NCBI GenBank assembly: GCA_963662715.1
Contig: OY759724.1
Location: forward strand, 330,001 to 362,000
Source: Candidatus Omnitrophota bacterium
GTDB lineage: Bacteria; Omnitrophota; Gorgyraeia; Zapsychrales; JANLHA01
Direction of reading: 5' to 3'
DNA: 32,000 nucleotides
Shown: one piece after another, positions 7,933-25,210 of the stretch
Layout of the letters: each line of letters opens with the position of its first letter
Position numbering within the stretch: position 1 is the first letter of the stretch
Notes under the pieces: model-generated
Seen by the model: the letters and a program-made list of their open reading frames with translations, nothing else
The model's database searches: none
What the model was told of the DNA's origin: nothing
Position numbers and translations under genes: made by a program

Positions 7933-7943
7933 AAAACATAAAG

Positions 7944-9993: not shown

Positions 9994-10084
9994 TTGAGCT
10001 ACGATTTCACGCTGTGTTTTTTCGGACTTGATTCCGGCACGAGGGAATGTTGCCGCTCTTAAGGCATTTATTTTGATAGACATT

Positions 10085-10168: not shown

Positions 10169-10178
10169 CTTTATTCTT

Positions 10179-10231: not shown

Positions 10232-10425
10232 CCTCTGGTTTTTCCCTTGCTGTCCGAAATTTTACGTAATAAAATGAGGACTAATTCTGCCAATATGGCA
10301 GAAGATAAAAACACGGTAAAATCGTGGGGGACAACATCATTGACGGAGCCGACCGGGCACGCTTCACGCGGTGGATCGCCGACGCTACAGAACAACCCTT
10401 TTTACTAGAATTGGACGGATAAACC

Positions 10426-11859
10426 ATGGACCATACTCAAACTCAACTTCTGATCATCGGGGCCGGCCCCGGCGGATATGTCGCTGCCTTTCACGCCGCT
10501 GATTCCGGCCTGAATGTTACTTTAATTGACCGCGAAAAAAATCCCGGAGGCGTTTGCCTCTTCCGCGGCTGCATCCCTTCCAAAGCTTTACTGCATGTGG
10601 CGCGCATCCTTTCCGACGCCAGGGACGCCAAAGCGTTTGGGGTAGAATTCCGCGAACCGGATATTCATCCGGAAATTGTCCGCAAATGGAAGAACAGCGT
10701 CGTTGATAAATTGACCGGGGGGCTGGGGCAGCTGTCCCGGCAGAGAAACATCAACTTTATCCAGGGAGAAGCTGCTTTTCTTGATTCTCAAAATGTCGAA
10801 GTCAAAACAGCTGACGGCACGTTGTCTCAAATCCATTTCGACCATGCTATCATCGCGACCGGGTCTCAGCCTGTCACCCTTCCCTTTGCCCCTGAGTCGC
10901 CGCGGGTCATGGACTCCACGGCGGCTTTGGAATTAGCTGAAATCCCGCCGAGACTTCTTGTTATCGGCGGAGGATATATCGGACTGGAACTGGGGTCGGT
11001 TTATGCCGAACTGGGCAGCACGGTATCTGTCGTAGAAATGACGCCGCAGCTCCTTCCGGGAGTCGATCCGGACTTAAGCATGATCCTGAAAAAAAGGCTC
11101 CGGCTGAAATTCGAGGCCATCAAATGTCATACCCGGGTCACAGGACTGCAGGACACGGGGTCGGCCGTCGAGGTGACTTTCGAAGACGCCAAGGGGCAGA
11201 CAAATTCCGATTCATACGACAAAGTCCTTATCGCCATCGGCCGCAAACCGGACGCCTCCTCCCTGCGGCTGGAAAAAACAAAAGTCCGATTAACAGACCG
11301 CGGGTTTATTCAAATCAATGCCCAGCGCCGGACAGACGACCCCGCTATTTACGCGATCGGGGATGTCGCCGGGAACCCTATGCTGGCGCATAAAGCGTCT
11401 CACGAAGCCCGGGTGGCGGTGGACGCGATCCTCGGGAAGAACACCGCTTTCTCCCCGCAGGCCATCCCGGCCGTGGTCTTTACCGATCCGGAAATTGCCT
11501 GGTGCGGCCTAACGCAAGCCCAGGTGCAGGATCAAGGCCCGGACATCAAAATTCTAAAATTCCCCTGGGCGGCTTCCGGACGGGCTGTCACGTTAAACCG
11601 CACTGACGGGTTGACAAAGATTATGACAGACGCCCGGACAGGCCGCATCCTTGGTGTGGCTCTCGTTGGGACCGGGGTCGGAGAAATGATCGCGGAAGGG
11701 GTTCTGGCTGTCGAGATGGGAGCGGTTGCCGAAGATCTTATGCTGAGCATCCATCCCCATCCGACGCTATCGGAAACGATGATGGAAGCCGCCGAAAGTT
11801 TTTTCGGGCAGAGCATGCATATTTACAAGCCGCCCCGGAAAAAGCAGGACCTCATTTAA
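10426..11859 (+). CDS. lpdA: Dihydrolipoyl dehydrogenase (E3 component)
   Basis: 477 aa. It has the FAD motif IIGAGPGGYVAA, the redox-disulfide motif GGVCLFRGCIPSKALL, the NAD motif VIGGGYIGLELG and the C-terminal HPHPTLSE interface motif. Confidence 0.9.
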   Translation: MDHTQTQLLIIGAGPGGYVAAFHAADSGLNVTLIDREKNPGGVCLFRGCIPSKALLHVARILSDARDAKAFGVEFREPDIHPEIVRKWKNSVVDKLTGGLGQLSRQRNINFIQGEAAFLDSQNVEVKTADGTLSQIHFDHAIIATGSQPVTLPFAPESPRVMDSTAALELAEIPPRLLVIGGGYIGLELGSVYAELGSTVSVVEMTPQLLPGVDPDLSMILKKRLRLKFEAIKCHTRVTGLQDTGSAVEVTFEDAKGQTNSDSYDKVLIAIGRKPDASSLRLEKTKVRLTDRGFIQINAQRRTDDPAIYAIGDVAGNPMLAHKASHEARVAVDAILGKNTAFSPQAIPAVVFTDPEIAWCGLTQAQVQDQGPDIKILKFPWAASGRAVTLNRTDGLTKIMTDARTGRILGVALVGTGVGEMIAEGVLAVEMGAVAEDLMLSIHPHPTLSETMMEAAESFFGQSMHIYKPPRKKQDLI

Positions 11860-12857
11860 TTTTCTTCTATCCGGGTTAATAATTGCTTCAATTCCGGGCC
11901 GAAAATTTTTGAAAACTCGATAGAACCCAGCTGGTTCAGATGCTGGGAATTATAGAAATACTTTTCCTGCCGCGCCATTTCTGCCGAAGAGTAATCCATA
12001 AAAACAATGTCCCGGCCGTCACTCAGTTTTCTATAGATGGCTCTCACTTCATCCAAATTGACAACAAACTCGTTGAACTGATAATAAACCGGGGCATAAA
12101 CAAAAAACAGCCGGATACGTTTCTGCCGGCACAGCTGAACAAGCTCATTCAGAGCGGCCTTCCCCTCCTCGGTCATTTGCCCTTTAAGGCCTTGCGGATA
12201 AAGCCTTTTAACGGTTTTGACATCTTCCTCCTTATTCCAGTCTATGTTCACCGGGCAATAACCTTTGTAACAGTCAACCGTATCTTCCCGGCCGGTCAAC
12301 CCCTGGACCGCATCGACCGTAAAGTCATGACTTAACAGGGCAAAGCTGTATAAAGGGAAATACCTGGCTAAGATAAAATGTTTCGAAATCCCGGAAAGGG
12401 TTTGATAAATCTCTTTTTCGTTCAAATAAGGGATAAACTGTCCCGGATTATACGCCCGGGGCTTACGAAGGGTATTGCGTCCCACCACCTGAACAATAGC
12501 TTCCGGCGGGCGGTTGTATTTCAGGTAGACTTTTAACCGGGCCACCTGCAGGGCCAGGGAATTTCCCAGCAGGGCGATATTATAGACATCTTTATTCAGG
12601 TCCTCTTCCAGCAGAGAAACGTCCATGCCGGCTTGCGCCCGGGAAGCTCCAGTTATCAGGATGTCGGCATTAATTTCTCCCCGGACAATACGGTTCCATT
12701 CCCCGAAATCGCCGCTTCTCCTCGCGTAAAACCCTTCCATCAAATAAGCCTGGACAGCCAGACTGAGGATGACAAATATAACGGGAAAAGCGATCATGTC
12801 TCTTGCATTCTGATTCATGGCGTTAAAATTGGAAATAAATAAATTCGATCCCTTCAA
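11856..12857 (-). CDS. MBOAT-partner protein, DltD/AlgJ-type SGNH-like (tentative), membrane-anchored
   Basis: 333-aa ORF directly downstream of the MBOAT gene. It has one N-terminal TM segment (IAFPVIFVILSLAVQAYL) and a C-terminal YFYNSQHLNQLGSIEFSKIF reminiscent of DltD/DUF1574-type partners. The annotated start overlaps the MBOAT gene by 35 nt; an in-frame ATG at 12816-12818 (MNQNARD) lies 4 nt after the MBOAT stop. The stop codon shares bases with the lpdA stop (convergent TTAA). Confidence 0.45.
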   Translation of the reverse strand: MKGSNLFISNFNAMNQNARDMIAFPVIFVILSLAVQAYLMEGFYARRSGDFGEWNRIVRGEINADILITGASRAQAGMDVSLLEEDLNKDVYNIALLGNSLALQVARLKVYLKYNRPPEAIVQVVGRNTLRKPRAYNPGQFIPYLNEKEIYQTLSGISKHFILARYFPLYSFALLSHDFTVDAVQGLTGREDTVDCYKGYCPVNIDWNKEEDVKTVKRLYPQGLKGQMTEEGKAALNELVQLCRQKRIRLFFVYAPVYYQFNEFVVNLDEVRAIYRKLSDGRDIVFMDYSSAEMARQEKYFYNSQHLNQLGSIEFSKIFGPELKQLLTRIEEN

Positions 12858-14256
12858 ATTTCCCCAGAAAAATAATGCTGAAAAGTACCGCGTAATAAAA
12901 AATCCAGCGTGCGAACTTAGGCATCCTTAACGTCAGGTCTCTCAGCCGCCAGCGGCTCTGCAGCAAATGCACGATAATGAGCAGAGCTATCAAGGCCAAA
13001 GATACGGTAAAATCAAAAGTTTTATACGGGAAAGCGTCGTTGCCCCCCGGGCTGAACATATTTATTATAAGAGTTTTCACATCACGCAGCGACTGGGCTC
13101 TAAAAAATATCCATGAAAAAAGCACCAGGTGGTACGTGATGGCGATCCGAAGCATTTTGTACAGGGCCGGGACTCTCTCCAAATTCAGGAAAGACACCGC
13201 CCGGCGGCGCCAGCCTTCCGTCCAGACAGAAAAAAGCATATAAAATCCGTGAAGCGCCCCCCAGACAACAAACGTCCAGTTCGCGCCGTGCCAAAGACCG
13301 CTGATAACAAAAACGAAAATAAGATTAAGGTACCACCGCTGTACCGGGACGCGGTTGCCGCCGAGAGGAATGTACAAATAGTCCCGGAACCAGGTCGACA
13401 AAGAAATATGCCAGCGCCTCCAGAACTCGGCAATGGATACGGCAAAATAAGGGCGCCGGAAATTCTCCATGATTTCAAAGCCCATGATCCTGGCGGCTCC
13501 GATAGCAATATCCGAATAGCCGGAGAAATCGCAATAAATTTGAAAAGCAAAAAACGTCGTGGCGATGTAAACCGTCGCGCCATGCCATTGCGCGGGATGC
13601 CCGTAAACAAAATTCACAAAAAAGGCCAAGCGGTCCGCGATGACGATCTTTTTAAAGAATCCCCATAACATAAGTTTCAGGCCGTCGCACATCCTGGGAT
13701 AGTCGAAATCATGTTTTTTAAAAAACTGCGGCAACAAGTGGCCGGCCCGCTCAATCGGGCCTGCGACCAGCTGCGGGAAGAAAGATACGTATAAGGCAAA
13801 AACCCCTAAATGCCTTTGAGGCTCCAGTCTTTTACGGTAGACATCAATCGTATAGCTTAGCGTCTGAAACGTATAAAAGGATATCCCTAAAGGAAGCAGG
13901 ACATTCAGATGAGGGAGATACGCGGACAAACCGAGGGTCTTGAACAAGGCGTTAAAACTGGACGAGAAGAAATTAAAATATTTAAAAACCGCCAGAATGC
14001 CCAAATTCGTCATAAGGCTCAGGACAAGAAACATCCGGCGTTTCACAGGGTTTTCCGTCCGCCCCATCTGCCATCCGGCAGTGTAATCCACCAAGGTTGA
14101 AACCACCAGTAAAAGAACATACGGGATGTTCCAGAACATATAAAACACGTAACTCGCCAGAAGAAGCCAGGCCCAGCGGAAACGGAAAGGGAAAAGGAAA
14201 TAAAGGGTAACAACGACAGGAAAAAATATTAAAAATTCTAGAGAATTAAAAAGCAT
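12823..14256 (-). CDS. MBOAT family O-acyltransferase (AlgI/DltB-like)
   Basis: 477 aa. It starts MLFNSLEFLIFFPVVVTLYF, typical of AlgI/DltB, and is polytopic. The conserved region FWRRWHISLSTWFRDYLYIPLGGNR and a later SGLWHG contain the MBOAT histidines. Confidence 0.85.
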   Translation of the reverse strand: MLFNSLEFLIFFPVVVTLYFLFPFRFRWAWLLLASYVFYMFWNIPYVLLLVVSTLVDYTAGWQMGRTENPVKRRMFLVLSLMTNLGILAVFKYFNFFSSSFNALFKTLGLSAYLPHLNVLLPLGISFYTFQTLSYTIDVYRKRLEPQRHLGVFALYVSFFPQLVAGPIERAGHLLPQFFKKHDFDYPRMCDGLKLMLWGFFKKIVIADRLAFFVNFVYGHPAQWHGATVYIATTFFAFQIYCDFSGYSDIAIGAARIMGFEIMENFRRPYFAVSIAEFWRRWHISLSTWFRDYLYIPLGGNRVPVQRWYLNLIFVFVISGLWHGANWTFVVWGALHGFYMLFSVWTEGWRRRAVSFLNLERVPALYKMLRIAITYHLVLFSWIFFRAQSLRDVKTLIINMFSPGGNDAFPYKTFDFTVSLALIALLIIVHLLQSRWRLRDLTLRMPKFARWIFYYAVLFSIIFLGKFEGIEFIYFQF

Positions 14257-14356: not shown

Positions 14357-14401
14357 AAAAAAACGGGACAGCATCCTTTTATTATAAAAATGCTGTCCCG
14401 T
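14357..14401 (-). terminator. Rho-independent terminator of the giant gene
   Basis: The 11-12-bp perfect stem CGGGACAGCAT (14364-14374) / ATGCTGTCCCG (14390-14400) is followed on the minus strand by TTTTTTT (14357-14363). It lies 24 nt after the TAA stop at 14425. Confidence 0.8.
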
Positions 14402-14424: not shown

Positions 14425-17400
14425 TTAATTATAATTCAGCATGCTGAGCTTATCATGTTCGTCATCGAAAAAGAACTGAATATCCGACTCCGCCGGTTCC
14501 TGCTGAGGCTTCCGGTCTGCGCCTTTTTCCGCCTCTGTGCCCCGGCCCCGGGTTGTCCCTCGGGCCGGAACCGCATCCTCGGCACTCATGCCCAGCAGCA
14601 TCGGCAGGTTGGGAATCGGCGTAATGTTGATAATAACCGGCAAGAACCCTTCTATATTCATATTCTGAATCGGCTGTTGCTGAACAGGTAAAGGAACACC
14701 GCTTCCGTCCCGTCTGATCTGCAGGTTCAAAAGCGCCGGATTAAGATCGATACCACCAAGCGGCGAAGAAGTCGCCGGCGCGGCTCCTATATTCGCTGCC
14801 AGCCGTTGAACGGTATTGATAACCTGGCCCACGCCGCCCTTACTGTTCTTTTCTGTTCTCATAAGTTTGCTGAGGTCACGTTTCGCCTGTTTGGTCGAGA
14901 TGCTGCCATCAGCGACAGAGACCAGAAGCTCCCTTGTCCCTTTATTTTTCAGATTAAATTTCGTCATAGCCTTGTCAACGGCTTCGATCGGAGAAGAAAC
15001 GGCCGCGCTGGCGAGTTCAATGACTTCCGCTGTTGCCAACAGGTTTTGCACGGCAGATTCTTCATTTACCCTGTCAAGGACTTCCGTAATGTCCCGGTCG
15101 ACCCAATCTCCAGGTAATGTCACAGCAACATCAATCCCGGCCTCCTGCCATTGAAAAGCGACACCGGTTTCATCGGCCCTTACCCCGTCATAACGCAAAA
15201 CCAAGTTTGCGCCTTCGACAAAAAAGTAGGTCCTCTTCCAAGGGAGGTCCTCCCCTTCATCAAATTCCGGCAAATTGGTTTTTACGGTCAGCTGTTCAGA
15301 CAGCTTAAAGGGCACGGACAAATCGGTCAAACGTGTCTCCAGCTGACTCATGGTGTTGATCACAGATTCTAAGCGCGTCGCCTCTTCGATCGGGATGTCC
15401 CGGGCTAATTCAATCTGCAGCTCTTTGGCCGGGAGAATCTCTCCGACCTGCCGTAGAACATCCGCGACCTGATTCCGGACTGTCTCTAGCCTGGCGCGGT
15501 CCTTTTCCACCTCTATTTCAACCTGGGCCAAAAGCTGTTCGGCCTGGGTTAACAAGTCAGCCACCTTTTCTTTTTCATTCGCGGCAAACTGAATAGGAGA
15601 AGAGGCCCCCAACGACATGAAGTCAATTAACGGGAACCGTTCCGGACGCCCGGCATCAAGCATGAGCAGCTGCAAATCCCGGTTCTCATCCTCCGTCACC
15701 CGGACAGCCTCATTAAACACCCGGGCGGCCATAACTAATATTCTCTCAGCCAGAGCCCTGTCAACACCGTCAATTTCCATTAATTTATTTTCAGCTTCTG
15801 TTCTCCGGTCAGCCTTCTCTAATTCTATCGCCTCCTGGATGGCCTGGTAAGCATCGGCCGTCACAAGGTTATAGCCTAAGGCCAAACTGGCCGGAAGCAG
15901 CCTGAACATGGCCTCTCCGACAGGGTAAGCTCCGTCCATCAGCTTGATGCTGAGGATATGGGCGGCTTTGGCCAAAGGAGGATTCTGTTCAATAAAGACG
16001 ATCTGATTGGCCAATAAAGCCCGCATAGCGGCATGAATCCAGCCGTTCTGGGCCCCGTTGACCTGCTTATCAATATCCACGATTTGATTAATAAGCTGTA
16101 CGTTCTCTTCGGCTAACCCAATCGTTGAGAGTATCGGGGAAGACACGCCTAAATTCGTATAATCCAAGAACTCGATATACTTCGCCTCAACCCCGGTAAG
16201 AGCTACGGCAAAAGGCCCGTCTGTAGGAGTCCAGGTTAACAAGACATCCTGAAGAGCAAAAGGATTAGCATACTCAAAATCCCCTTGTATTTCCCGGGAT
16301 ACCAGCACAGTTGCATCATCCGGAGCCCTTAATTCCAGACGTGTTGTACTATCAGGCTCATGGACATTAACATACAAAACATTTCCGTCATGCTTGAATA
16401 AGATCCTTCTTGAAGCGCCCTGATTATTGTCAAGGTTCCGTCCCTCGCTGACCAGAGGCTCTCCCAGCACGGCAAAATTCCCCAGCTGGCTTGCTGCTTC
16501 ATAATTCTCAACTTCGTTATATTTCGTTCTTGCCCGCATCACGGCCGCCTGCCATTCCCCTGCCGAAGCAGCCGTCTCCAAGGCCTCGGCCAGGACAAAC
16601 GGACTCTCTGACATCCAGTCGCCGGAAAGGGTTAATTCTTTTATATCCGTCTTGTCGTCCCTGGCGCGTAAAACAAGCCGGGTCGTCCCTTGTGTATGGT
16701 CCCGGTGAGCATAAAGGATACGTCCGTCATGCCCGAACAGGGCTCTCAAAGACGGGCCGTCATTTTCTGCCCAATTCTGTCCTTCCCGGACCATTGTTTT
16801 AACCGGAGAAGCAGCCAACAACGACTCTCCGATATAGGGGTCATGCTGAGCATGCAGGTCTCTGCCTGCCTCCATATTAGGGATTCCATTCTCGTCTGTC
16901 CTCAGCAAGGCAGCTCCCAGACCGGTTCCAGGCCCGATATAAAGAATGCGGGCATTGTCGATTCTTTGCCCGGACAACTCATATAATGCTGTGGCCCCGG
17001 CAAAAGCATCGTTCATCCACACCACGTTATAAGGTTCTCCTAATAAACCCTGCAACGTGCTGGCAGGGTTCACACCGAAAAATTGCGGGCGGTTGGGCCA
17101 GCTTTCTTGAGCGATAGCGCCATCAGCCTCTTTTTTCCCCGGATGCCCGACCCCGATTTCAAAGGAAACCTCGTATTGTTCAGTCTCTAATTCATTCCGT
17201 AAAGTATTAATAAGAGGAAGCAGTGCGCTGTAATATTCTTCCGGTTGAACTTGTGCGATATCACGGTCTAATACAAACCGCTGCATCCCTCCTACAAATT
17301 GCACAAAATTTCCGTTTTCATCAAACTGGATCCCCTGCATCTTGGCAGAGGTCCCGCCCACATCAACACCGATCACAACCTTGTTCCGTCTAAGGTCTTG

Positions 17401-20400
17401 ATCAACCAGCAATGCTGCTCCTAATATCCCTGCTTCTTCCGCAACCATTTGATTTTCAGCTGAAAGGATCGGCAGTATCGTAACGCCGGTTCCCAACACG
17501 CTTCGGATCTTCTGTTCCAGGATATTGCGGATAAAAGGATTATTGCTAATAGCCCCGCCGATCTCAATAACGTTAATGCCTTTCCACTCATCTTCGATGG
17601 CTCTTAAAGCTTCTCCATCCTGACTCCGCAAGGCCCCTTCCATCAGCAGAGACGCAAACTGCGCATAAACACCCCCGACAAATTCCAGCACCTGAGTGAT
17701 AACATCTGCGGCCTCGGAATCGGGATAAGTTTGCAAGACCCAGCCCATAAACCTGGTATCCAGATTCCCCTGATATTCGGCCAACAGGTCCGTAAACAGG
17801 TCCTTGTTTTCCTTAAGGAGCTGTTCATTCACCTGGGCGAACATCCGGTTAATCGCCGTAGTCGAAGAAAGGTTCTCCGTTGTTAATCTTTCTGTTGTAA
17901 AAGACACCAGCACTTCACGCCCGTCCCGCAGGGAAATGGCTACAGGGATGGCTTCTAACGGCGAAGAACCCAAGTTATTTTTTAAAGCGACAATATCTTT
18001 CACGGAATAGGGCTTCATGAAAATATCCGTAAAAAGGCCGCCTTTTAAACCTGTCGCGGCATCAACCTGCTGAAGCTCCTCCAGATTCGGGGCAAAACCC
18101 GTCGTGAGGATGATGGGGAGATCTCTTACCGCCCGGATCTCTCTGGCAAGTTGTTCGCCGGTCATCTGAGGCATGACGAAATCTGTCACCACCAGATCAA
18201 TATCCGGATTCTCGTTAAACACTCTCAAGCCTTCTTCTCCGTTATCGGCGCGAATGACTTCCGCTTCGCCGAAAACCGCACCGAAGAGCTGCGCAGCCAC
18301 ATCTCCGACCATCTCTTCATCGTCCACAACAAGAATTTTCTTGATGGGCGTCGAAACCACGGCAGCAGTGGTGGTGGTAATTTTATCTTTTAAAGCGGTT
18401 AACTGCTCAAACTCATAAGGTTTATCCAGGACTTCATCAAATAATCCGCCCTTTAAACCGGTCGCTTCATCCACGGCCGTTAATGTGTCGTCTATCGTCC
18501 CTGACAACAAGACAACCGGGACATTGTTTCCTGCGGCCCTCAACTCACGGGTGAACTGATCTCCGGTCATAACAGGCATTTGCAAATCCGTTACAACCAG
18601 GTCAAAATCCCCGGACTCCCGGAAGGTCTGAAGGGCTTCCTGCCCGTTGTCTGCGGTAACGACTTCCACGTCCCCGAACACGTCTTTCAAATCTTCGCTC
18701 ACCAGGAGCAAAATGGATTTTGAATCATCGACCAGGAGGATCTTCTGAATCGGAGAAGCCACCGGGGCCGCTCTCAAGGAAGACTCTACCTGCGAGATAA
18801 ACGCCTGCAAGTCTTCTGAATATTTGTTCGCCTGAATGATTCCCGACAATATTTCACTGACTTCTGTCTCTGTCGCCTGCGCGGCGGCAACATAAGCCCC
18901 TTCTATCTCAAAGAATACTTCGGCCACGATTTCCCCTGTCCTCCCATCATATAATTTATGAGAAATCTGGTTGGCCCCAGCAACCTCTTCCCCGATAACC
19001 ATTACAGGGTTATTATCCCGCATAACCAATATGGTACGGGCAAAGGATTGCGGATGATAAGTCCGGATGATACCCGTCTGCCCCTGGGCCATGGTCAACA
19101 ATTCCAGCCCCGTTGTATCGATGACCGGGGATGAAGCAGGCGGCGTTGTCCTTACGAGCTCTAAGGCTCTAGCCGCATCCTCTTCCGTAATTCCAATCAA
19201 ATCATTACGGAAAGAAACCCCGGCGCTTCTTTCTGCATCTTCCAAGCTCCCTGCCGTAAAATTGAACTTCCGCAGATCCTCCAGCCGAAAAGTAAAATAC
19301 TGCGATATTTGGGCCGCTGTCGGAACCCGCCCTTGACTTGCTTCTATATCCATCCATTGCCGAAACAACTCAATATCATCCCTATCCACCTCATATTCGC
19401 CCGTTACCATTCTCTCTATGGCAGCCGGCAACCCCGTCATCCATCCCCGATATCTCGGATGACTCAAGATATACTTCTCTACCCCTACGGGCAGAAACGT
19501 TATGTCTTTTTCCGGGTCGGAGGAAAAATGCTCCCGGATATTCGTGGAGGATGTCCCGAACAAATTAATATGTCCTATCGGCCTTATAAATCCTCTTGCC
19601 ATGTATTCCTTCATTTGAGCCACTTCCACCGGCATAGGCAGACTTTCAAATAATTCCCTGAAGTTGAAGGCCAACATCATGTCGATATTATTTCTTTGAA
19701 GATGGTCGGCCAACTCCTCTTTCATCCGGTCCATCTTTAAGACCGTATCCGGCTGAGGATGATCCCCGTCCATTTTAGGAGTCCTGTACCCATCGGTATC
19801 CATGTCGCTTGACGGGGCATAAACATGCATATGGTCCCCGCCGACCGCTGTATAGACCCACGTTGTCTTTCCTGTTCTGCCCCCGTTGATTTCAATCAGT
19901 TTCTTGTACTTCGTTTCGCCATCCGCCTCTGAACCGTTCAAAACTTTTGACAAGACAAGAAGTCCGTCAAAAAGATCCACCCATTCCTGCGCCATTTCAT
20001 CGCGCTCCTCAAAAGTCGGGTTCAGCCCCTTCTTCTGCTTGCGGTAATCAAAGGCATGGTTGACGACACCAACCTGGGAAATTTTCAATTGCGCCATGGC
20101 CCGCAAAACCGGTTCGAACTGGCCGAAATGCAGAGGATTCAACGCTGAGGCATAAACACCGACGATCGTATCCCCGGTATCTGTTTCCTGCCCCGTAAAC
20201 TCCGCGTCCTGTTCACTCCAGCGCACCTGCTGCAATTGCATCTCCCCGTTCATCATATGGACGCCGATTTCCCATAAAGATTCCTTCACCTTTCGTGTCC
20301 ATTCACCGGCCAATTGCTCGTTTCGACCCGGTTCCTGACGCAGACTCCGCCTCACAAGATTATCAAAGACCTGTTCCACGTCCACCCGGATCTCTTTGTT

Positions 20401-23145
20401 CACGTTCGGAAAAATGCTTTTGGCATATTCATATTCCTTAACCCGGTTCTCTTCATGCGTCCCTTGATTCGCGGTGTAGACCAAAGAACGCTCAAGCATC
20501 CGGTAAGGGTTCCCTTTTTCCTCTATCATGCGCCTGAACCCGCTTTCCATAACGATCTTCTTCCGTCCCGCCTCGACAACAAGGGCCATACCAAACGTGA
20601 CATCTGTCCCGCTGTCGATTTCCTCTACCGTGGTAATATCGATCTGGCGTCTTTCTTTATTTAAAAAGTACGTACGGATTTCACTCAGTTCTGCCAACTG
20701 AACTTCCCGGCGTTCCTGCCCGGCCTGTTCATAAGCCCATACCTGATTCAGAACTTCTCCCATACCCATCCGCTGATTGTAGCTGTTGCCGAACATCACT
20801 CCGTCCCGGTACGGGATCCCGTCCGGGTTGATTCCGTCCTCTAATTCAACTAAAATATCTCTCCAATCCCGTTTCGTTTCATCACCGGCCCTGGCTTTCA
20901 TCATCATAATCGGCGTAATACCATACCCGAAAAACTCATGGCTCGTTGTGCCTTCAGCTTCAGAATAAACGCTCACCAACTGAAACAGGTCATCAAAATT
21001 TATTGTTCTGGTCCTTCCTGTCTCCGTCTCCACAACATTATCCTCTTTGGCGTGGATAAAATTCGCCAATGAATCTTCCCGGATACTCCGCGGCGCCCCC
21101 AGCGGTGAGGAGACGGCCGTCTGATCAAGCAGCATGAGCTCGTCTTCGTCAAGCTGCTGCAGCAGGGCCGTTTCCGCATCTGACAGGGCCTGGGAAACCT
21201 CCGGCCCCTTTTGAAGAAGCTGTGTGGCGGCCTCTATTAAAACGCCCAACTGTTCCGGCACCTTGGCGAAAGTGTCGTCCGGCAACGCGTCGCTTCTTAT
21301 CAAATGCAGCAAACTTAAAATCTTCCGCTCTCTTCGCAGTTCACTCCTGGCCACAGCCCGGTTTTCATCAGCCAGAGCTGACCGGTCTCCGTAATTTTGG
21401 GCCGCTTTCTCCAACCCGGCGATATCCTCTTGGTATAACTGCATAATTTCATCGGGAATGGTAACCGCACCCCCACGCGCCCTCACAATAGTTTCCAAAG
21501 CTTCAAACACGTTCATCGGCGCTACGCCTGTCATCAACTCTTCCAAACGCCCTTCTTCCTGCGGCGCTAAGGTTGATTTAAGAATATCGGACATAATAAG
21601 GGCGAGACGCTTTGTTCTGGTTCTGGTAAAGGTCTTGGAAGCATATTCCAGCAAACGCCGGCTCTCCTCGGTCAGGTTCTGGAAAGATTCTATTTTCACC
21701 AGGTCATTAAGAGATACTCCCGCCTGAATCTTTTCGGCAATATCCGCACTCACGCGGCCGATCAGGGCCAACCCGTCGTCAACGGTGATCCGCTGGGCCG
21801 CGGCTGATGTGACATACCCCAGATACTGGCGGGCTAACTGCGTGTTCTGTTCGATCACATCGGCAAAATTCGATATAGGGGAAGCCACAATAGCGCTCTG
21901 CGCCGACAATGTTTCAGAAGGGTTCTCCGCCAGGATAGCCGCCACCTGCACCACCGGGCTTGAAACACTCATCCCGGCATCGATCCTTGCTCTTAAAGGA
22001 GACGACGGCGGGACATTACGCAGTTCGACGGACGTGATCGAGCTGGAGACCTCGGAAGCATCAACCCCGCCGGAAAAATATTTTCGCGGGATGACTTTTT
22101 TCGTCGACATATCATAATCTTCCCGGATATAGTCATAAACGCCTTTTTTAAATGCCGCCAGGTACTGTTCATAAATTTTCTGTTTAATTTCCTTGTCGTT
22201 AACGTCCACGCCTTTCACCTTGCCTTTGTTGACATAGACTTGTCCAAGGAGACTCGCTCTTAAATTCTCTTTATACCAGGTCGCTAAAATCAGGGAATTG
22301 AAAATCTGCCGCAGATTAGCAAAATTCTTGCCCTCATTGACTTCCTTTTCTATTTCCGGCAACAAAACTTCCCGGACAACATCCGAAGAAACCTTGCTAA
22401 GAGTCTTTACATAATCCTGGGTGATCTTTGTGGTTCCTAATTTTTTATTATCCAGGTTCCTTTCCAAAGCTAAGTAATCCTCTTCCAGCATAACTTTCAG
22501 ATGACTGTCAACCACAAAAGCGCTGCCGTTATGCTCAACAACCAAGGCGTCTTCCGGGATAATCCATATTTTGTTGAACGTATTGATCGGAATATTTGTC
22601 GTACCATATTCTTTTTGTGCGCGGTCATAGACTCTTTGCCAAAATTCCTGGCCGAGATCATCTTCCGGATAGATCATCGAGGCCGTTAACTGCTTCAGCA
22701 TATAGTCCTGAGCCAGGAGGTCGCGGCCCATTTCTGTCATGCTGAAACCTTCGGGAACAATACGGTCGCTTTCATAAGGAGAAAGGTTAACCCACAAATC
22801 TTTTTCCGGGATCGTCAGGGCGGCGAGAAAATATTTAATGAGTTTGCTGGATTCTGCTTCGAGTTCTTCTCCGGTCAATTGGTCGTTTCCGGAATCGATA
22901 ATAAAATCGAATTTTAAAGGATTTTCCGGGTCGATCTTCACCCCCTTCAAACAGGCCGGGGCATAAATATCGCTTTTCATAACCATGGCCCCGGGCATCG
23001 GCAGATCCAAAACCGTCGGGGCTGGATCAGCCGCGGATACCGGCGCGGGTGGAATGATGAGGCTTATCAGAAATGAATAACTGATAAACGAGACTAAAAT
23101 ACGATACGACCAATGATCACGACTATTCCGGAAATAGTTAAACAT
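14425..23145 (-). CDS. Giant (2,906 aa) mosaic protein: signal anchor + conserved N-module + NadD-like nucleotidyltransferase + 2 receiver domains + ASKHA/ROK-like kinase segments + unknown repeats + conserved GGIDLNP C-module
   Basis: Uninterrupted 8,721-nt ORF with ATG at 23143-23145, preceded by AGGAGG (23156-23161), a TAA stop and a strong terminator. Domain signatures and their coordinates are given under findings. Confidence 0.9.
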   Translation of the reverse strand: MFNYFRNSRDHWSYRILVSFISYSFLISLIIPPAPVSAADPAPTVLDLPMPGAMVMKSDIYAPACLKGVKIDPENPLKFDFIIDSGNDQLTGEELEAESSKLIKYFLAALTIPEKDLWVNLSPYESDRIVPEGFSMTEMGRDLLAQDYMLKQLTASMIYPEDDLGQEFWQRVYDRAQKEYGTTNIPINTFNKIWIIPEDALVVEHNGSAFVVDSHLKVMLEEDYLALERNLDNKKLGTTKITQDYVKTLSKVSSDVVREVLLPEIEKEVNEGKNFANLRQIFNSLILATWYKENLRASLLGQVYVNKGKVKGVDVNDKEIKQKIYEQYLAAFKKGVYDYIREDYDMSTKKVIPRKYFSGGVDASEVSSSITSVELRNVPPSSPLRARIDAGMSVSSPVVQVAAILAENPSETLSAQSAIVASPISNFADVIEQNTQLARQYLGYVTSAAAQRITVDDGLALIGRVSADIAEKIQAGVSLNDLVKIESFQNLTEESRRLLEYASKTFTRTRTKRLALIMSDILKSTLAPQEEGRLEELMTGVAPMNVFEALETIVRARGGAVTIPDEIMQLYQEDIAGLEKAAQNYGDRSALADENRAVARSELRRERKILSLLHLIRSDALPDDTFAKVPEQLGVLIEAATQLLQKGPEVSQALSDAETALLQQLDEDELMLLDQTAVSSPLGAPRSIREDSLANFIHAKEDNVVETETGRTRTINFDDLFQLVSVYSEAEGTTSHEFFGYGITPIMMMKARAGDETKRDWRDILVELEDGINPDGIPYRDGVMFGNSYNQRMGMGEVLNQVWAYEQAGQERREVQLAELSEIRTYFLNKERRQIDITTVEEIDSGTDVTFGMALVVEAGRKKIVMESGFRRMIEEKGNPYRMLERSLVYTANQGTHEENRVKEYEYAKSIFPNVNKEIRVDVEQVFDNLVRRSLRQEPGRNEQLAGEWTRKVKESLWEIGVHMMNGEMQLQQVRWSEQDAEFTGQETDTGDTIVGVYASALNPLHFGQFEPVLRAMAQLKISQVGVVNHAFDYRKQKKGLNPTFEERDEMAQEWVDLFDGLLVLSKVLNGSEADGETKYKKLIEINGGRTGKTTWVYTAVGGDHMHVYAPSSDMDTDGYRTPKMDGDHPQPDTVLKMDRMKEELADHLQRNNIDMMLAFNFRELFESLPMPVEVAQMKEYMARGFIRPIGHINLFGTSSTNIREHFSSDPEKDITFLPVGVEKYILSHPRYRGWMTGLPAAIERMVTGEYEVDRDDIELFRQWMDIEASQGRVPTAAQISQYFTFRLEDLRKFNFTAGSLEDAERSAGVSFRNDLIGITEEDAARALELVRTTPPASSPVIDTTGLELLTMAQGQTGIIRTYHPQSFARTILVMRDNNPVMVIGEEVAGANQISHKLYDGRTGEIVAEVFFEIEGAYVAAAQATETEVSEILSGIIQANKYSEDLQAFISQVESSLRAAPVASPIQKILLVDDSKSILLLVSEDLKDVFGDVEVVTADNGQEALQTFRESGDFDLVVTDLQMPVMTGDQFTRELRAAGNNVPVVLLSGTIDDTLTAVDEATGLKGGLFDEVLDKPYEFEQLTALKDKITTTTAAVVSTPIKKILVVDDEEMVGDVAAQLFGAVFGEAEVIRADNGEEGLRVFNENPDIDLVVTDFVMPQMTGEQLAREIRAVRDLPIILTTGFAPNLEELQQVDAATGLKGGLFTDIFMKPYSVKDIVALKNNLGSSPLEAIPVAISLRDGREVLVSFTTERLTTENLSSTTAINRMFAQVNEQLLKENKDLFTDLLAEYQGNLDTRFMGWVLQTYPDSEAADVITQVLEFVGGVYAQFASLLMEGALRSQDGEALRAIEDEWKGINVIEIGGAISNNPFIRNILEQKIRSVLGTGVTILPILSAENQMVAEEAGILGAALLVDQDLRRNKVVIGVDVGGTSAKMQGIQFDENGNFVQFVGGMQRFVLDRDIAQVQPEEYYSALLPLINTLRNELETEQYEVSFEIGVGHPGKKEADGAIAQESWPNRPQFFGVNPASTLQGLLGEPYNVVWMNDAFAGATALYELSGQRIDNARILYIGPGTGLGAALLRTDENGIPNMEAGRDLHAQHDPYIGESLLAASPVKTMVREGQNWAENDGPSLRALFGHDGRILYAHRDHTQGTTRLVLRARDDKTDIKELTLSGDWMSESPFVLAEALETAASAGEWQAAVMRARTKYNEVENYEAASQLGNFAVLGEPLVSEGRNLDNNQGASRRILFKHDGNVLYVNVHEPDSTTRLELRAPDDATVLVSREIQGDFEYANPFALQDVLLTWTPTDGPFAVALTGVEAKYIEFLDYTNLGVSSPILSTIGLAEENVQLINQIVDIDKQVNGAQNGWIHAAMRALLANQIVFIEQNPPLAKAAHILSIKLMDGAYPVGEAMFRLLPASLALGYNLVTADAYQAIQEAIELEKADRRTEAENKLMEIDGVDRALAERILVMAARVFNEAVRVTEDENRDLQLLMLDAGRPERFPLIDFMSLGASSPIQFAANEKEKVADLLTQAEQLLAQVEIEVEKDRARLETVRNQVADVLRQVGEILPAKELQIELARDIPIEEATRLESVINTMSQLETRLTDLSVPFKLSEQLTVKTNLPEFDEGEDLPWKRTYFFVEGANLVLRYDGVRADETGVAFQWQEAGIDVAVTLPGDWVDRDITEVLDRVNEESAVQNLLATAEVIELASAAVSSPIEAVDKAMTKFNLKNKGTRELLVSVADGSISTKQAKRDLSKLMRTEKNSKGGVGQVINTVQRLAANIGAAPATSSPLGGIDLNPALLNLQIRRDGSGVPLPVQQQPIQNMNIEGFLPVIINITPIPNLPMLLGMSAEDAVPARGTTRGRGTEAEKGADRKPQQEPAESDIQFFFDDEHDKLSMLNYN

Positions 23146-23370
23146 AATACAGTTCCCTCCTGGATTTTGGTAAAAAAATAGACTTTCTTATGAATTTACA
23201 TAGAATTCTTGGGACAGGGAGATTTTTTGAAAGGGTATATAAAATATATCATGTATAAAGGGGAAACACAAGAAAAGTTTATTATATAACATATTTATTT
23301 CCTTATATTTAAGAACTTGCCCAGGCCGTTTCCAAAAATTAGGGCACATAAAGGATAAAATAAGTCATAT

Positions 23371-23841
23371 TTACTGTGATTCCGGAGAAATATCCGTAAT
23401 GTGAAATTCCGCTGTAAGCCCTTCCTCTAACTGATTTTGAGACGACTGTCCGGCATTAACCTCCAAAACATACAGGGCTTTTTGCGCAGGCGGGTAAACA
23501 GGACAGGGCGACGACTGGCACGGGGGGACGTTTTCTTCAATATGAACAATCCTCCGGTTATGATCCAGCCAGATGATATCTAGAGGAATATACGTATCTT
23601 TCATCCAGAAAGCATAGGCTCTTCGTTCCGGAAAAATAAAAAGCATCCCTTTCCCCGGCTCCAGGCTGGTGCGGAATTGCAGGCCTTGCGTCCTTTGTTC
23701 CTGAGTTAAAGCTAACTCGACTTCATAACACGTATCTGAGAAGCATACACTGTTGTTTTTGCTGACTTTTTTCTGACAGGAAGCAATAAAAAACAGCAGA
23801 AAAAAGGCCAGGCAGAAAAATCTGATATTTTTAGGCATCAT
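23371..23841 (-). CDS. DUF192 domain lipoprotein
   Basis: The lipobox-like segment LLFFIASCQ is followed by the DUF192 pattern GLQFRTSLEPGKGMLFIF...FWMKDTYIPLDIIWLD...YVLEVNAG. The ATG at 23839-23841 overlaps the TGA of the M48 gene. A GTG at 23842-23844 is an alternative start. Confidence 0.8.
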   Translation of the reverse strand: MMPKNIRFFCLAFFLLFFIASCQKKVSKNNSVCFSDTCYEVELALTQEQRTQGLQFRTSLEPGKGMLFIFPERRAYAFWMKDTYIPLDIIWLDHNRRIVHIEENVPPCQSSPCPVYPPAQKALYVLEVNAGQSSQNQLEEGLTAEFHITDISPESQ

Positions 23842-24626
23842 CACAATTCATTTCCCGTGAGGTTCAAATAATCCTTGAAGCGGAGCGCCCCGGTGATTTC
23901 CTTATGAACAATCCCCACGCGCTCGGAAAGATACGGATGCGTACGGAAATAATTGATCTGCTGGGCAGGTGCCCGGTCCTGTTCTTTTTTGAGGATATCC
24001 AGCATCGTTATCATTTCCTCGGCATCATAGCCTGCCTTCTTCATATATTTCACGGCCAGCCGGTCGGCTTCAAATTCATCACGCCGGGAATAGGCGAAAA
24101 AAACACTCGTATAGACGGCATTAACGCCCACAATGGCATCCGCATCCTGCGAGGCGATGGCCAAAGCCTGCAGAATGGTATACCCGTAAGCGCTCTGCAT
24201 CCGTTTGATGCCGTGGCGGGCCGTAATATGGCCTAACTCATGCGCAATAACCCCGGCCAATTGATCATCATTCTCCACCTTATCCATAAGGCCTTTAAAA
24301 ACATAAATATACCCTCCGGGCAGACTCACGGCATTGATTTTATCCTCATCAATCACGCGGATCGTGTAAACCACGTCTTTCCGGTCGACAACCGGAATTA
24401 AGCTCTCAAGAATTTTCTGAACCCGCGCATTGACATCGATGTCCTCGTTAATTTTATAGTTGCGTTCAATTTGCCGGGCCACAGAATCCCCGATACGCAC
24501 TTCTTTCTCCGTCCCGTAAATCAGCCGTTCCTCGCGCCCGGTCGCTAGATTATATTCCGAGGAACAGCCCCACAGGTTCAACAGGGACATCAGCATGACC
24601 AGCAAACAACCATGTCGCCTACTCAT
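23841..24626 (-). CDS. M48 family zinc metallopeptidase (lipoprotein)
   Basis: It has the HELGHITARH (HExxH) motif, and the MSRRHGCLLVMLMSLLNLWGCSS lipoprotein signal begins at the ATG at 24624-24626. That ATG forms an ATGA overlap with the maf stop. The longer ORF-track start at 24701 would overlap maf. Confidence 0.85.
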   Translation of the reverse strand: MSRRHGCLLVMLMSLLNLWGCSSEYNLATGREERLIYGTEKEVRIGDSVARQIERNYKINEDIDVNARVQKILESLIPVVDRKDVVYTIRVIDEDKINAVSLPGGYIYVFKGLMDKVENDDQLAGVIAHELGHITARHGIKRMQSAYGYTILQALAIASQDADAIVGVNAVYTSVFFAYSRRDEFEADRLAVKYMKKAGYDAEEMITMLDILKKEQDRAPAQQINYFRTHPYLSERVGIVHKEITGALRFKDYLNLTGNEL

Positions 24627-25210
24627 AATACCGTTACTCCGCATTTCTTGAGCATGCCCCGTAACATGGCCAAAGGCAACCCGATGACGTTTGTGTAGCA
24701 TCCTTCAACACGGTTAATAAACAGCGCGCCCCGGCCCTCAATATTATACCCGCCGGCTTTATCCAGAGGAAATATCTTACGATGATACCGCCGGATTTCC
24801 TGATCTGACAACGGCTGCATATAGACTTTGGTTTTTTCATAGCCGACAAATTCCCGGTTCCCGGCAACATCAATGACAGCCACACCCGTGTAGACCCAGT
24901 GCGGATGCCGGCACAAGAATCTCAGGACACTTTCAGCTTCTTTAAGATTTCCGGGTTTGCCGATAAGACCTTTATGCCGTTGGTAAACAACCGTATCCGC
25001 CGCAATGATACAGCCTTTCCGAAACCGGGCGGCCACATCTCTCGCTTTTAAACAGGCGTTGTGTTTAACAAGCCTGCTGCAGGAATTTCTCACCTGATGG
25101 TCCTCCTGCACGGCGCTGGGACACACGGTAAACTTCAGCCCCAGTTGACGGAGAAGGGCTTTACGGCGTTGAGACGCCGAAGCTAGAATAATGGATGGCA
25201 TTGTCGGCAT
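24623..25210 (-). CDS. maf: Maf-like nucleoside triphosphate pyrophosphatase
   Basis: IILASASQRRKALLRQLGL at the N-terminus and GAYNIEG-like GGYNIEGRGALFINRVEGCYTNVIGLPL at the C-terminus. The start is chosen at the ATG at 25208-25210; the ORF-track start at 25228 is a TTG. Confidence 0.85.
   Translation of the reverse strand: MPTMPSIILASASQRRKALLRQLGLKFTVCPSAVQEDHQVRNSCSRLVKHNACLKARDVAARFRKGCIIAADTVVYQRHKGLIGKPGNLKEAESVLRFLCRHPHWVYTGVAVIDVAGNREFVGYEKTKVYMQPLSDQEIRRYHRKIFPLDKAGGYNIEGRGALFINRVEGCYTNVIGLPLAMLRGMLKKCGVTVL

Follow-up and report, generated by a model that had tools for sequence, protein, structure and literature searches.

What does a bacterium produce from one gene that strings signalling domains and segments resembling metabolic enzymes behind an N-terminal export signal? 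The question is raised by a gene for a protein of 2,906 amino acids in the window, as the whole 32,000-nucleotide stretch of Omnitrophota DNA analysed here is called.

Gene integrity and expression signals

The original prediction described one uninterrupted mosaic gene with a Shine-Dalgarno site and a terminator, and all of these elements are present. In the window sequence, a single unbroken open reading frame (ORF) that starts with ATG occupies positions 14425..23145 of the minus strand, on which all features described below also lie. Direct reading of the sequence places a Shine-Dalgarno-like GGAGG (23156..23160) 10 nt 5' of the ATG, with an AT-rich spacer of 225 nt upstream of it, and an intrinsic terminator 3' of the stop codon (14357..14399), which is formed by GGGACAGCA, a loop, TGCTGTCCC, a G and a run of seven T (T7). 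By its GGAGG site and its strong terminator, which stands between the giant gene and the MBOAT gene, the ORF appears to be its own transcription unit.

The gene is real. The 2,906-aa protein is found identical on a public contig of 3.36 Mb, and uninterrupted syntenic or orthologous ORFs of 2,919, 2,747 and 2,049 aa, the first of them syntenic, are present in independent assemblies, with five full-length occurrences of the 2,049-aa related form. These occurrences argue against a chimeric assembly or a fused or decayed gene whose motifs come from chance or from DNA repeats, as do the intact expression signals and a delimiter motif that is enriched 28-fold and written in varied codons. No point in favour of such an artefact was found; it is effectively refuted and keeps almost no probability.

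Signal peptide and cysteine content

The first 38 residues (23032..23145) comprise, according to the family alignment, a basic n-region, the h-region ILVSFISYSFLISLII, a PP pair and the site VSA↓A, which follows a hydrophobic segment at aa 16-34. In the same alignment the cleavage-site consensus is AxA↓Q, with A at -1 in 87 of 93 sequences, Q at +1 in 82 of 93 and A, V or S at -3; the n-regions have a mean charge of +3 and the PP helix breaker is present. This segment is the sole stretch of transmembrane (TM) grade hydrophobicity in the 2,906-aa protein. It had been taken for a signal anchor; the export signal is confirmed, and the segment fits a cleavable-type Sec signal peptide better than an anchor.

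Cysteine is nearly excluded from the protein, which has one such residue (aa 65) in 2,906 positions, against 1.61% in the other ORFs of the window (p = 1.6e-19). The median cysteine content of the family is 0.000% (n = 154). Catalytic cysteines are among those retained: the GAPDH motif ASCTTN is present in the relatives P0140 and P0206, and the isocitrate lyase motif KKCGH is kept in six family members, in two of which it holds the only cysteine of the protein. Exclusion of cysteine has been described as a trait of exported proteins (PMC2823432). From the signal-peptide consensus, the presence of only one TM-grade segment and the cysteine exclusion, we infer that this is a candidate exported protein.

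These same features bear on the possibility that the segment is an uncleaved anchor and the protein a membrane-tethered cytoplasmic scaffold, an enzyme and signalling "metabolon" in which the motifs between cassettes are mere linkers. Every recognisable cargo is of cytoplasmic type, which agrees with such a scaffold, and a cytoplasmic-face reading is favoured, in the preprint of Nielsen and Lui (10.64898/2026.06.07.730766), for the class of giant proteins that have TM segments only and no signal peptide. Here, however, the basic n-region (positive-inside) together with the near-invariant AxA↓Q site predicts an N-in/C-out topology and cleavage, a cysteine exclusion that spares only catalytic residues would be unexplained in a cytoplasm where neighbouring genes encode 1.6% cysteine, and the N-terminal module that follows the signal peptide would have no evident role. 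The scaffold is thus distinctly unlikely.

Head and tail modules

Directly after the signal peptide comes the head module (aa 39-375; 22021..23031), with the motifs LNLPxPG...WVNLSPYE...EMGRDLLAQDY...PRKYFSGG and 50-84% identity to relatives. An N-terminal module that looked conserved had been predicted, and its conservation extends across 8,052 representative clusters (lengths 420-5,312 aa) and more than 1,600 word-indexed homologs. In all 150 of the representatives listed, the head is at the protein N-terminus. Profile scans assign it to no Pfam or NCBIfam family. Its AF2 model (pLDDT 83.9, pTM 0.81) has no significant Foldseek match in PDB or BFVD, and for a minimal member consisting of head and tail a Foldseek search against PDB also gives nothing significant, so the head is predicted to have a novel alpha/beta fold that matches nothing solved. 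ClyA-family pore-forming toxins (MakA/B/E, NheA, SmhA/B) repeatedly come at the top of the Foldseek list, with TM scores of at most 0.14 and probabilities of at most 0.10; a pore-forming head is not proposed, as these scores are low and its long hairpin is not hydrophobic.

At the other end, the last delimiter, SSPL (aa 2793), is followed by a tail of 56 residues (aa 2797-2852), GGIDLNPALLNLQIRRDGSGVPLP...GFLPVIINITPIPNLPMLLG; delimiter and tail together span 14590..14769, and the tail core GGIDLN...LLG spans 14590-14757. The protein has the family pattern GGIDxN...PVIINxxP...LLG near its C-terminus. The C-terminal module of the original prediction (14586-14778) is upheld, since, of 240 relatives retrieved, at least 72 have this 56-aa core conserved at the C-terminus, as do 45 C-terminal fragments, and it is the closing module of most complete members. 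The alignment set for the tail consisted of short natural members and C-terminal fragments. After the tail comes a variable C-terminal extension (14425..14589), acidic rather than basic, that ends in ...KLSMLNYN and the stop codon; an end motif of the type hydrophobic-S-hydrophobic-L is found within the last 10 residues of 21 of 72 members, against a background of 1.6%. Scans of head and tail against Pfam and NCBIfam, with E-values up to 1-5, revealed no TPS domain, C-terminal beta-barrel, Por_Secre_tail or signal of the PEP-CTERM/LPXTG type.

Head and tail are far better conserved than the cargo between them, and in the model of the relative P0082 the tail is predicted to form two strands (pLDDT 70-92). 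Two strands predicted with moderately high confidence in a tail of merely 56 residues suggest that the tail may pack on a partner. Both observations would suit a surface coat or self-assembling array, in which neighbouring molecules bind head to tail, for example by strand complementation through the tail strand LPVIINITP, and cassettes are displayed uncleaved on a cell-surface layer; an extracellular "coat" has been proposed for V. archaeovorus (PMC10066038). Such an array would leave the presence of ATP- and NAD-requiring enzymes on the surface unexplained and would not need delimiters, and we regard it as improbable.

Cargo cassettes

Between head and tail, the protein is a series of cassettes. 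Two short spacers (21886..22005) start at the delimiters SSPL (aa 381) and SSPV (aa 395), both of which are kept in the orthologs P0122-P0126. Cassette M2 (aa 421-678, opener ASPI; 21112..21885) belongs to no recognisable family in Pfam or NCBIfam, and in P0122 and P0124-6 the blocks homologous to it are arranged in swapped order. Cassette M3 (aa 679-1337, opener SSPL; 19135..21111) has an N-terminal half of no known family and a C-terminal half that is NadD-like (aa ~985-1250; ~19396-20193), and recurs entire, elsewhere in the order, in P0127-P0130. It is followed by cassette M4 (aa 1338-1462, opener SSPV; 18760..19134), to which the Pfam and NCBIfam scans assign no family.

Cassettes M5 (aa 1463-1597, opener ASPI two residues ahead of strand beta-1; 18355..18759) and M6 (aa 1598-1726, opener STPI; 17968..18354) hold two receiver (REC) domains, which had been predicted and are the only statistically solid domain calls in the protein. 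The receiver model PF00072 gives 101.2 bits, in two stretches, against a gathering cut-off of 30.2; M5 also matches response regulators in PDB with E 4e-10. The translation reads VDD...TDLQMP...LLSGT...DKP in the first and VDD...TDFVMP...LTTGF...MKP in the second, so both keep the DD pair, the phospho-acceptor Asp, the S/T and the K-P, that is, all residues of the phospho-acceptor pocket. In the Pfam scans, the protein shows no output domain of a recognised type and none of the window ORFs scanned shows a histidine kinase domain; a partner may be encoded at a distance.

The calls of a NadD-like nucleotidyltransferase and of a sugar-kinase-like segment are sub-threshold but coherent. For the first, the NadD model TIGR00482 gives 18.7 bits against a cut-off of 112.45 (E 1.4e-3) and Pfam, including PF01467, gives no match. 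Nine of 12 matches of a six-sequence NadD-like profile are NadD structures (E 0.017-2) with both signature motifs aligned; SSTNIR is present, and HFGQ stands in place of HxGH, which reads HWGH or HVGH in the cassette homologs P0132 and P0128. The second segment is cassette M7 (aa 1727-2111, opener SSPL; 16813..17967), which is 69% identical in P0122 and P0123. NCBIfam models of ASKHA kinases match it with E 3e-4 to 2e-2, far under their cut-offs, Glucokinase PF02685 reaches 16.3 bits against 22.1, and glucokinase structures are matched with E 0.18-0.45. It has a phosphate-1 motif DxGxT (DVGGT, in GVDVGGTSAK) and a GxGxG ATP-binding motif (GPGTGLG, in IGPGTGLGAAL). The zinc-binding cysteine motif of ROK kinases is absent, and is impossible with a single cysteine in the protein; the segment is therefore glucokinase-like at most, not a strict ROK kinase. 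By the refutation test set in the original prediction, neither its nucleotidyltransferase nor its ASKHA/ROK-like kinase reaches curated significance; both calls are backed only by coherent matches under threshold and by motifs, the first of which is altered in the nucleotidyltransferase, and the ROK label falls.

Cassette M8 (aa 2112-2334, opener ASPV; 16144..16812) is a tandem duplication (Smith-Waterman score 159, z = 32 against shuffles), in which a third copy is not significant; BLASTP self-comparison of the protein detects no internal repeats. The duplication that had been noted thus stands, with units of ~100 aa and not ~70 aa. The homology of cassette M9 (aa 2335-2514, no family, opener SSPI; 15604..16143) is to P0122, where its counterpart precedes the kinase cassette, which it follows here. 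Cassette M10 (aa 2515-2716, opener SSPI; 14998..15603) consists of a coiled-coil-like helical stretch and a small domain; for the coiled coil claimed earlier, aa 2517-2612 give a weak SMC-like (LmuB) match only. In P0122 and P0123 a different cassette is the upstream neighbour of M10, joined at the same SSP motif. The last cassette, M11 (aa 2717-2792, opener SSPI; 14770..14997), also contains DKAM. A PADLOC scan gives the giant protein no defence-system assignment. We agree with the earlier statement that this domain combination has no described function.

Delimiter motifs

The motif [AS][ST]P[ILV] stands before every cassette. The protein has 13 sites, against 0.46 expected and a maximum of four in 2,000 shuffles, and the other 20 ORFs of the window have none. 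Each of the 11 main delimiters falls within 12 aa of the end of a homology block, and the delimiter is kept in orthologs even where the flanking cassettes differ. The junctions of shuffled cassettes are exactly at the delimiter, and the motif is conserved at the peptide level.

Since the codons of the motif differ between sites, it was rejected as a DNA-level repeat or recombination scar; internal starts were rejected as well, because the [ILV] codons include TTA, GTC, GTT and CTT. Signal peptidase I would be blocked by the Pro after Ser-Ser, and it was rejected as the delimiter protease because this Pro sits at +1.

Other lineages of the family use other dialects, DxAM up to 24 times and ESPDAAV nine times in a protein. 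The dialects are mutually exclusive, with one exception in 154, and follow the relatedness of the head modules (47 of 59, against 30.6 expected). By the enrichment criteria of this analysis, ~40% of large relatives have an enriched delimiter and ~60% do not. A single protease class is unlikely to serve all three dialects, because they are chemically dissimilar.

Family distribution and cassette shuffling

By sequence comparison, proteins with this head-cargo-tail plan form a very large, unnamed and almost cysteine-free family of ~8,000 clusters, which is first defined here. The 2,906-aa protein shows its traits, namely the head after a signal peptide, the tail, the near absence of cysteine and a recurrent delimiter. 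Among the top 120 full-length matches, the head is present in all 120 and the tail in most. At least 599 head loci were found in species-representative genomes; the best 80 are labelled Omnitrophota, "uncultured Planctomycetales" or unclassified metagenome-assembled genomes (MAGs), with up to eight per MAG. All members with a named source come from Omnitrophota, and a genome has several paralogs. The N- and C-terminal modules, earlier linked to hypothetical proteins of uncultivated CPR/Omnitrophota-like lineages, do belong to Omnitrophota and not to CPR.

The cargo of the paralogs among these 120 matches includes PGM, UGPase, PGK, GPI, enolase, GAPDH, TPI, aldolase, hexokinase, starch synthase, PPDK, ICL/MS, PEPCK, GGDEF and REC; enzymes of glycolysis or gluconeogenesis and of glycogen and UDP-glucose metabolism are thereby represented. 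Such cargo needs ATP, NAD or phosphodonors, which are unexpected outside the cytoplasm and hard to square with simple secretion.

The order of cassettes varies between syntenic orthologs, and cassettes are shuffled among relatives between a fixed head and a fixed tail. Delimiters, cassette shuffling, a head-cargo-tail plan with enzyme cargo and cysteine exclusion, all absent from the original prediction, explain the architecture of the protein.

The neighbourhoods of the paralogs are unrelated, and none of them shows a consistent association with a gene for secretion, a protease or a partner. The upstream M48 peptidase and DUF192 genes are conserved only with the one syntenic ortholog locus that was examined (P0122). 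A link to the M48 peptidase, DUF192 and MBOAT neighbours was rejected, as these are syntenic only at that locus and absent near paralogs, and as a terminator sets the giant gene apart from MBOAT.

Comparison with known systems

The closest described proteins are the giant "Archaeovorin" or "multi-enzyme metabolic cluster" proteins of Omnitrophota (West-Roberts et al. 2023, 10.1101/2023.11.21.568195; Nielsen & Lui 2026, 10.64898/2026.06.07.730766). According to both preprints, metabolic enzymes are strung on enormous signal-peptide-bearing proteins, and their cutting and the side of the membrane are left open. The present family shares with them the phylum, the signal-peptide-bearing polypeptide and the open question of cleavage, and the palettes overlap in PGM, GPI, TPI, aldolase, PPDK, starch synthase, REC, ROK-type kinase, GGDEF, HEAT and methyltransferases. 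Those giants have at least 10,000-30,000 aa, usually many TM helices, C39/S8 peptidase or SecA-like domains and a T2SS-like locus nearby. In contrast to Archaeovorin-type proteins of more than 30,000 aa with many TM helices, the protein studied here has 2,906 aa and a single hydrophobic segment, which is the signal peptide. Pfam scans of the protein and its neighbours detect no C39/S8 peptidase, SecA-like, GT or HEAT domain and no T2SS-like locus. Term searches of the two texts found neither the conserved head and tail nor the delimiter motifs mentioned.

In polymorphic toxins of the CdiA and Rhs types, the payload boundary is marked by a lineage-dependent peptide, VENN in CdiA and DPxGL in Rhs, and paralogs are many. 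Like these and other two-partner-secretion proteins, the family combines a Sec signal and a conserved N-terminal region with swappable payloads, a short lineage-specific boundary peptide and many paralogs. It differs from them in its head, which has another fold than the TPS beta-helix, in lacking TpsB and immunity genes, and in its payloads, which are not toxins but metabolic or signalling modules, many in series and followed by a conserved tail. The P97/P102 adhesins of Mycoplasma hyopneumoniae, which are cut at S/T-X-F↓X-D/E, and the gingipains are processed polyproteins whose cleavage is demonstrated. They are likewise exported multi-domain precursors with short recurrent motifs between the pieces; here, cleavage is inferred, and motifs and domain content are unrelated. 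With tandem-receiver response regulators the protein shares two canonical receivers with intact phospho-acceptor pockets, and its NCBI ortholog cluster is named "response regulator"; unlike in these regulators, the receiver pair accounts for 9% of the protein, is joined to no output domain of known type and lies behind a signal peptide.

Proposed function

The reading preferred here, to which we give about an even chance, is a Sec-exported modular carrier or polyprotein, in which the delimiters would be recognition or processing sites. The cleavable signal peptide would direct the precursor to Sec transport, and the ~335-aa head, the string of independently folding cassettes and the 56-aa tail with its acidic extension would leave the cytoplasm together. 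The cargo in this case would be two phosphorylatable receivers, a NadD-like nucleotidyltransferase, a glucokinase-like ASKHA segment and about six unassigned cassettes. After Sec transport, head and tail may handle a later step, in which they would target the protein, anchor it or let it self-assemble at the envelope or cell surface. A trans-acting factor, co-evolving with each lineage, would recognise the delimiters; the likeliest candidate is an endoprotease, which would release cassettes or hinge them. The gene would thus encode a bacterial polyprotein or carrier whose cytoplasm-type enzymes and signalling modules act outside the cytoplasm of the producer. The retained catalytic cysteines of GAPDH and isocitrate lyase and the intact phospho-acceptor residues of the receivers are counted as supporting that the cargo is active. 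The plan of the protein, its family, the shuffling of cassettes at the motif, the conservation of that motif, the export-type signatures and the exclusion of cysteine are observed features, and the steps proposed beyond export are deduced from them.

If the exported protein were delivered into or onto a host or prey, it would be an effector polyprotein, whose cassettes, cut or uncut, use host ATP and NAD and rewire host signalling and sugar or nucleotide metabolism, with head and tail as trafficking modules comparable to those of polymorphic toxins. Such delivery would square the export signatures with a cofactor-needing and catalytically intact cargo, and the many paralogs per genome and rapid turnover of cassettes resemble effector and polymorphic-toxin families. 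Host dependence or predation has been inferred for Omnitrophota (PMC10066038; 10.1101/2023.11.21.568195), and such a lifestyle would suit an effector. The loci examined, however, show no link to an injection apparatus, an immunity gene or a host-targeting motif, the cargo seen includes nothing toxin-like, and the argument from lifestyle rests on inference for uncultivated organisms; we consider an effector unlikely.

A more far-reaching form of the carrier polyprotein, which we hold to be a minority possibility, is that Omnitrophota make thousands of cysteine-purged exported polyproteins, whose heads and tails would carry catalytically intact enzymes out. The dialects SSP[ILV], DxAM and ESPDAAV would be cut as sites of co-evolving proteases, and the released modules would work in a host, in prey or in a closed epibiont-host compartment. 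The Pfam families of the paralogs would, on this reading, cover most steps from the glyoxylate shunt and PEP formation through gluconeogenesis to glycogen and UDP-glucose, and the cargo would also comprise receiver, kinase and nucleotidyltransferase modules like those of the present protein.

Significance

A gene of middle size displays a simple grammar here: a fixed head, a fixed tail, swappable cassettes and a lineage-specific punctuation motif. This grammar yields testable predictions, namely exact candidate cleavage sites, an export signal, two modules for binding studies and dialects for phylogenetic profiling, and the punctuation motif could show whether giant proteins are cut into pieces. 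It also brings into one system ~8,000 clusters annotated as "hypothetical", "response regulator" or single glycolytic enzymes. This is relevant to metabolic reconstructions of the phylum, where exported fusion proteins may underlie pathway calls. If the far-reaching form proved true, it would mean a new class of bacterial effectors and a new route of metabolic parasitism.

Gene structure and genomic setting

The giant gene, as read from the window and its translation, is one uninterrupted reading frame (14425..23145, minus strand, 2,906 aa) with an ATG start, a GGAGG 10 nt 5' of it, an AT-rich 225-nt spacer preceding the GGAGG, and a stop codon followed by a 9-bp GC-rich hairpin and seven T. 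With these elements at its 5' and 3' sides it appears to be transcribed independently, and the single gene with strong ribosome-binding site and terminator described in the original prediction is confirmed. The assembly chimerism that the same prediction raised as a concern, like gene decay, is very unlikely, since a 3.36-Mb contig already on file encodes an identical 2,906-aa protein, relatives of 2,919, 2,747 and 2,049 aa are uninterrupted in other assemblies (the 2,049-aa form is full-length in five cases), and the 2,919-aa ortholog, P0122, has the gene order of the window (PyrE, Maf, M48 peptidase, DUF192, giant gene, MBOAT, unknown, Lpd). The chance that the protein is an artefact is negligible.

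Just upstream, a lipoprotein-type M48 metallopeptidase and a DUF192 protein are encoded (23371-24701, minus strand) in synteny with the ortholog locus, L001; M48 domains are also cargo in some family paralogs (P0138, P0155). Downstream, an MBOAT O-acyltransferase and its unannotated 333-aa partner (11856-14256, minus strand) keep their synteny in L001, and the terminator stands between them and the giant gene. Pyruvate dehydrogenase E1 and E2 genes lie between Lpd and a Mem_trans gene in L001 (22831-26891); the counterpart interval of the window (9850-10426) holds only a tRNA-Leu(CAG).

Elsewhere in the window a tmRNA gene adjoins smpB (7943-8333 and 8430-8891, minus strand) and has an unusually long predicted tag peptide, GESILAKANEIVEPIFAGEPVLA. 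Directly adjoining the tmRNA gene is a low-GC stretch (~2000-7900, 0.34-0.40 vs ~0.48 elsewhere) with two SIR2-like genes, at 2141-3274 and, with TPR repeats, at 4521-6560, which match the PADLOC models SIR2, ThsA and Aga_SIR2. It probably represents a defence island that inserted at ssrA.

The head-cargo-tail family

The conserved N-terminal module, or head (aa 39-375), and the 56-aa C-terminal module, or tail (aa 2797-2852), match no model in Pfam or NCBIfam. A word-index search for the head retrieved more than 1,600 proteins, and scanning all 1.84 billion representatives gave 8,052 clusters, 6,302 of them with E <= 1e-30; the module is N-terminal in every match listed, in proteins of 420-5,312 aa. 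Species-representative genomes contain at least 599 head loci, of which the best 80, up to eight per MAG, are labelled as Omnitrophota, 'uncultured Planctomycetales' TPA MAGs or unclassified MAGs. Public records assign some family members (P0012, P0241, L007/L008-type records) to Heimdallarchaeota, Deltaproteobacteria or 'uncultured Planctomycetales', which probably reflects binning or labelling errors and not true spread. The best 120 whole-protein matches (1.6-5 kaa) all have the head and most have the tail, in agreement with the predicted recurrence of both modules in hypothetical proteins of uncultivated lineages.

The Pfam families that lie inside the head and tail of these 120 proteins are strikingly cytoplasmic in type. 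They include phosphoglucomutase, UTP-glucose-1-P uridylyltransferase, PGK, GPI, enolase, GAPDH, TPI, aldolases, PPDK/PEP synthase, isocitrate lyase, malate synthase, PEPCK, hexokinase and starch synthase, as well as CofD, GGDEF, REC and HEAT. Whole pathway stretches occur within single members, P0206 (L004) and P0232 (L003), one with PPDK, GAPDH, TPI, PGK and enolase, the other with PEPCK, malate synthase, aldolase and isocitrate lyase, although in public annotation the name of such a protein refers to a single enzyme. In short members the head and the tail enclose just one domain, such as a methyltransferase, and P0082 (549 aa) is almost nothing but head and tail. Paralogs are neighboured by unrelated housekeeping genes, and tandem pairs exist.

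The head is confidently predicted (pLDDT 83.9, pTM 0.81) to adopt a mixed alpha/beta fold that includes a long hairpin, and Foldseek found no significant match for it in PDB or BFVD; ClyA-type toxins, which recur among the non-significant best matches, are treated as a lead only. In the model of P0082 the tail forms two strands (pLDDT 70-92). The extreme C-terminus (14428-14589, and in relatives) has a short conserved end motif, ...LSMLNYN, ISWLN, VSYLN or ELGFAVKEN, found in 21 of 72 members vs a background of 1.6%.

Domains of the giant protein

Only the two receiver domains, as originally called, exceed the Pfam threshold (101 bits vs 30.2), with PDB and NCBIfam searches in accord, and both retain in translation the acidic pair, the phospho-acceptor Asp, the S/T and the K-P. 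The predicted NadD-like nucleotidyltransferase and ASKHA/ROK-like kinase are sub-threshold but coherent, and similar in quality. For the former, TIGR00482 gives E 1.4e-3, and a profile of six cassette sequences finds NadD structures in 9 of 12 matches (E 0.017-2), with HxGH and SSTxIR both aligned; the HxGH position reads HFGQ in the giant protein vs HWGH or HVGH in homologous cassettes. The latter matches ASKHA sugar-kinase models (E 3e-4 to 2e-2) and glucokinase structures (E 0.18-0.45) and carries DVGGT and GPGTGLG; its ROK zinc motif is ruled out, because the protein contains one cysteine. By eye, a segment like the ASKHA C-terminal end (IEIGGAISNNP...AGILGAALL) precedes the N-terminal DVGGT half of this cassette (16813-17967, aa 1727-2111), which suggests a permuted or truncated arrangement. 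The duplication originally called for ~70-aa modules is real (z = 32), with copies of ~100 aa each.

Delimiters and cassette shuffling

The peptide [AS][ST]P[ILV], which opens cassettes, occurs 13 times in the giant protein vs 0.46 expected (maximum of 2,000 shuffles, 4), includes all 12 SP[ILV] triplets and is absent from the 20 other ORFs of the window. Since its codons differ among sites, a DNA repeat is ruled out and conservation is at the peptide level. These sites divide the protein into its evolutionary units. Homology blocks shared with relatives start and end at them, and none of the 11 main delimiters is more than 12 aa away from a block end (permutation p = 0.013). Block order varies, even against the syntenic ortholog, and the NadD-like cassette reappears at very different positions in P0127-P0130. 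Equivalent junctions of orthologs retain SSP[ILV] even with a different upstream cassette, and the tail is preceded by the same motif.

Relatives use other dialects: ASSPV 15-17 times in P0169, DxAM 14-24 times in P0148, P0221 and P0209, EESPDA[AV]V nine times in P0137, and DPAA and SSPA variants. SSP and DxA dialects exclude each other, with one exception in 154, and dialect tracks head relatedness (nearest neighbour of the same dialect in 47/59 vs 30.6 expected). Family proteins whose contigs have identical lengths, and which therefore probably lie on one contig, have a common dialect. The junction at 14980-14997 (aa 2717-2728), SSPIEAVDKAM, has two dialects in series, and ESPDAAV of P0137 is a hybrid; both hint at an ancestral bipartite delimiter SSP...DxAM.

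Export signatures and cysteine exclusion

The export signal of the original prediction is borne out by 93 aligned heads, in which a basic n-region (mean charge +3) leads into a hydrophobic core and a PP break. Position -3 is A, V or S, position -1 is A in 87 heads and position +1 is Q in 82, which is a predicted textbook signal peptidase I site. The giant protein, like 91 of 120 relatives, has no second TM-grade segment. It contains one cysteine in 2,906 residues vs 1.61% in the other window ORFs (p = 1.6e-19), and among 154 large relatives the median content is 0.000%. The rare survivors include catalytic cysteines, ASCTTN of GAPDH and KKCGH of isocitrate lyase, the latter being the sole cysteine of P0166 and P0222; this suggests that cysteine is strongly selected against in proteins whose enzymes would stay working. 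Exclusion of cysteine is known for passengers that cross an outer membrane unfolded. For exported proteins, too, exclusion has been described (PMC2823432). A tethered scaffold in the cytoplasm conflicts with the cleavage site and with this exclusion, and is decidedly unlikely.

Taken together, comparison across the family shows apparently Sec-exported, cassette-built proteins. There is perhaps an even chance that head and tail serve a step after Sec transport and that the delimiters would be recognised by a factor co-evolving with the lineage, most simply a protease. The cofactor need of the cargo is a difficulty for every extracytoplasmic reading, among them a head-to-tail surface array, which is highly improbable. 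Because of this difficulty an effector reading, in which the protein would enter host or prey cells, deserves testing; it is rather unlikely beside the post-Sec step with delimiter recognition.

Relation to known systems

West-Roberts et al. (10.1101/2023.11.21.568195) and Nielsen & Lui (10.64898/2026.06.07.730766) report Omnitrophota proteins of at least 10,000 aa with the same domain palette and raise questions of their cleavage and topology. A term search of these two texts and of Seymour et al. (PMC10066038) found no description of head or tail modules or of delimiter dialects, and a literature search for Omnitrophota polyproteins returned nothing relevant. The giant protein differs from Archaeovorins (the giants of West-Roberts et al.), from TPS proteins and autotransporters, and from known sorting signals in lacking their defining features. 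As a database entry it is ordinary, being one of thousands of unnamed relatives; its value is that it lays bare the grammar of its family.
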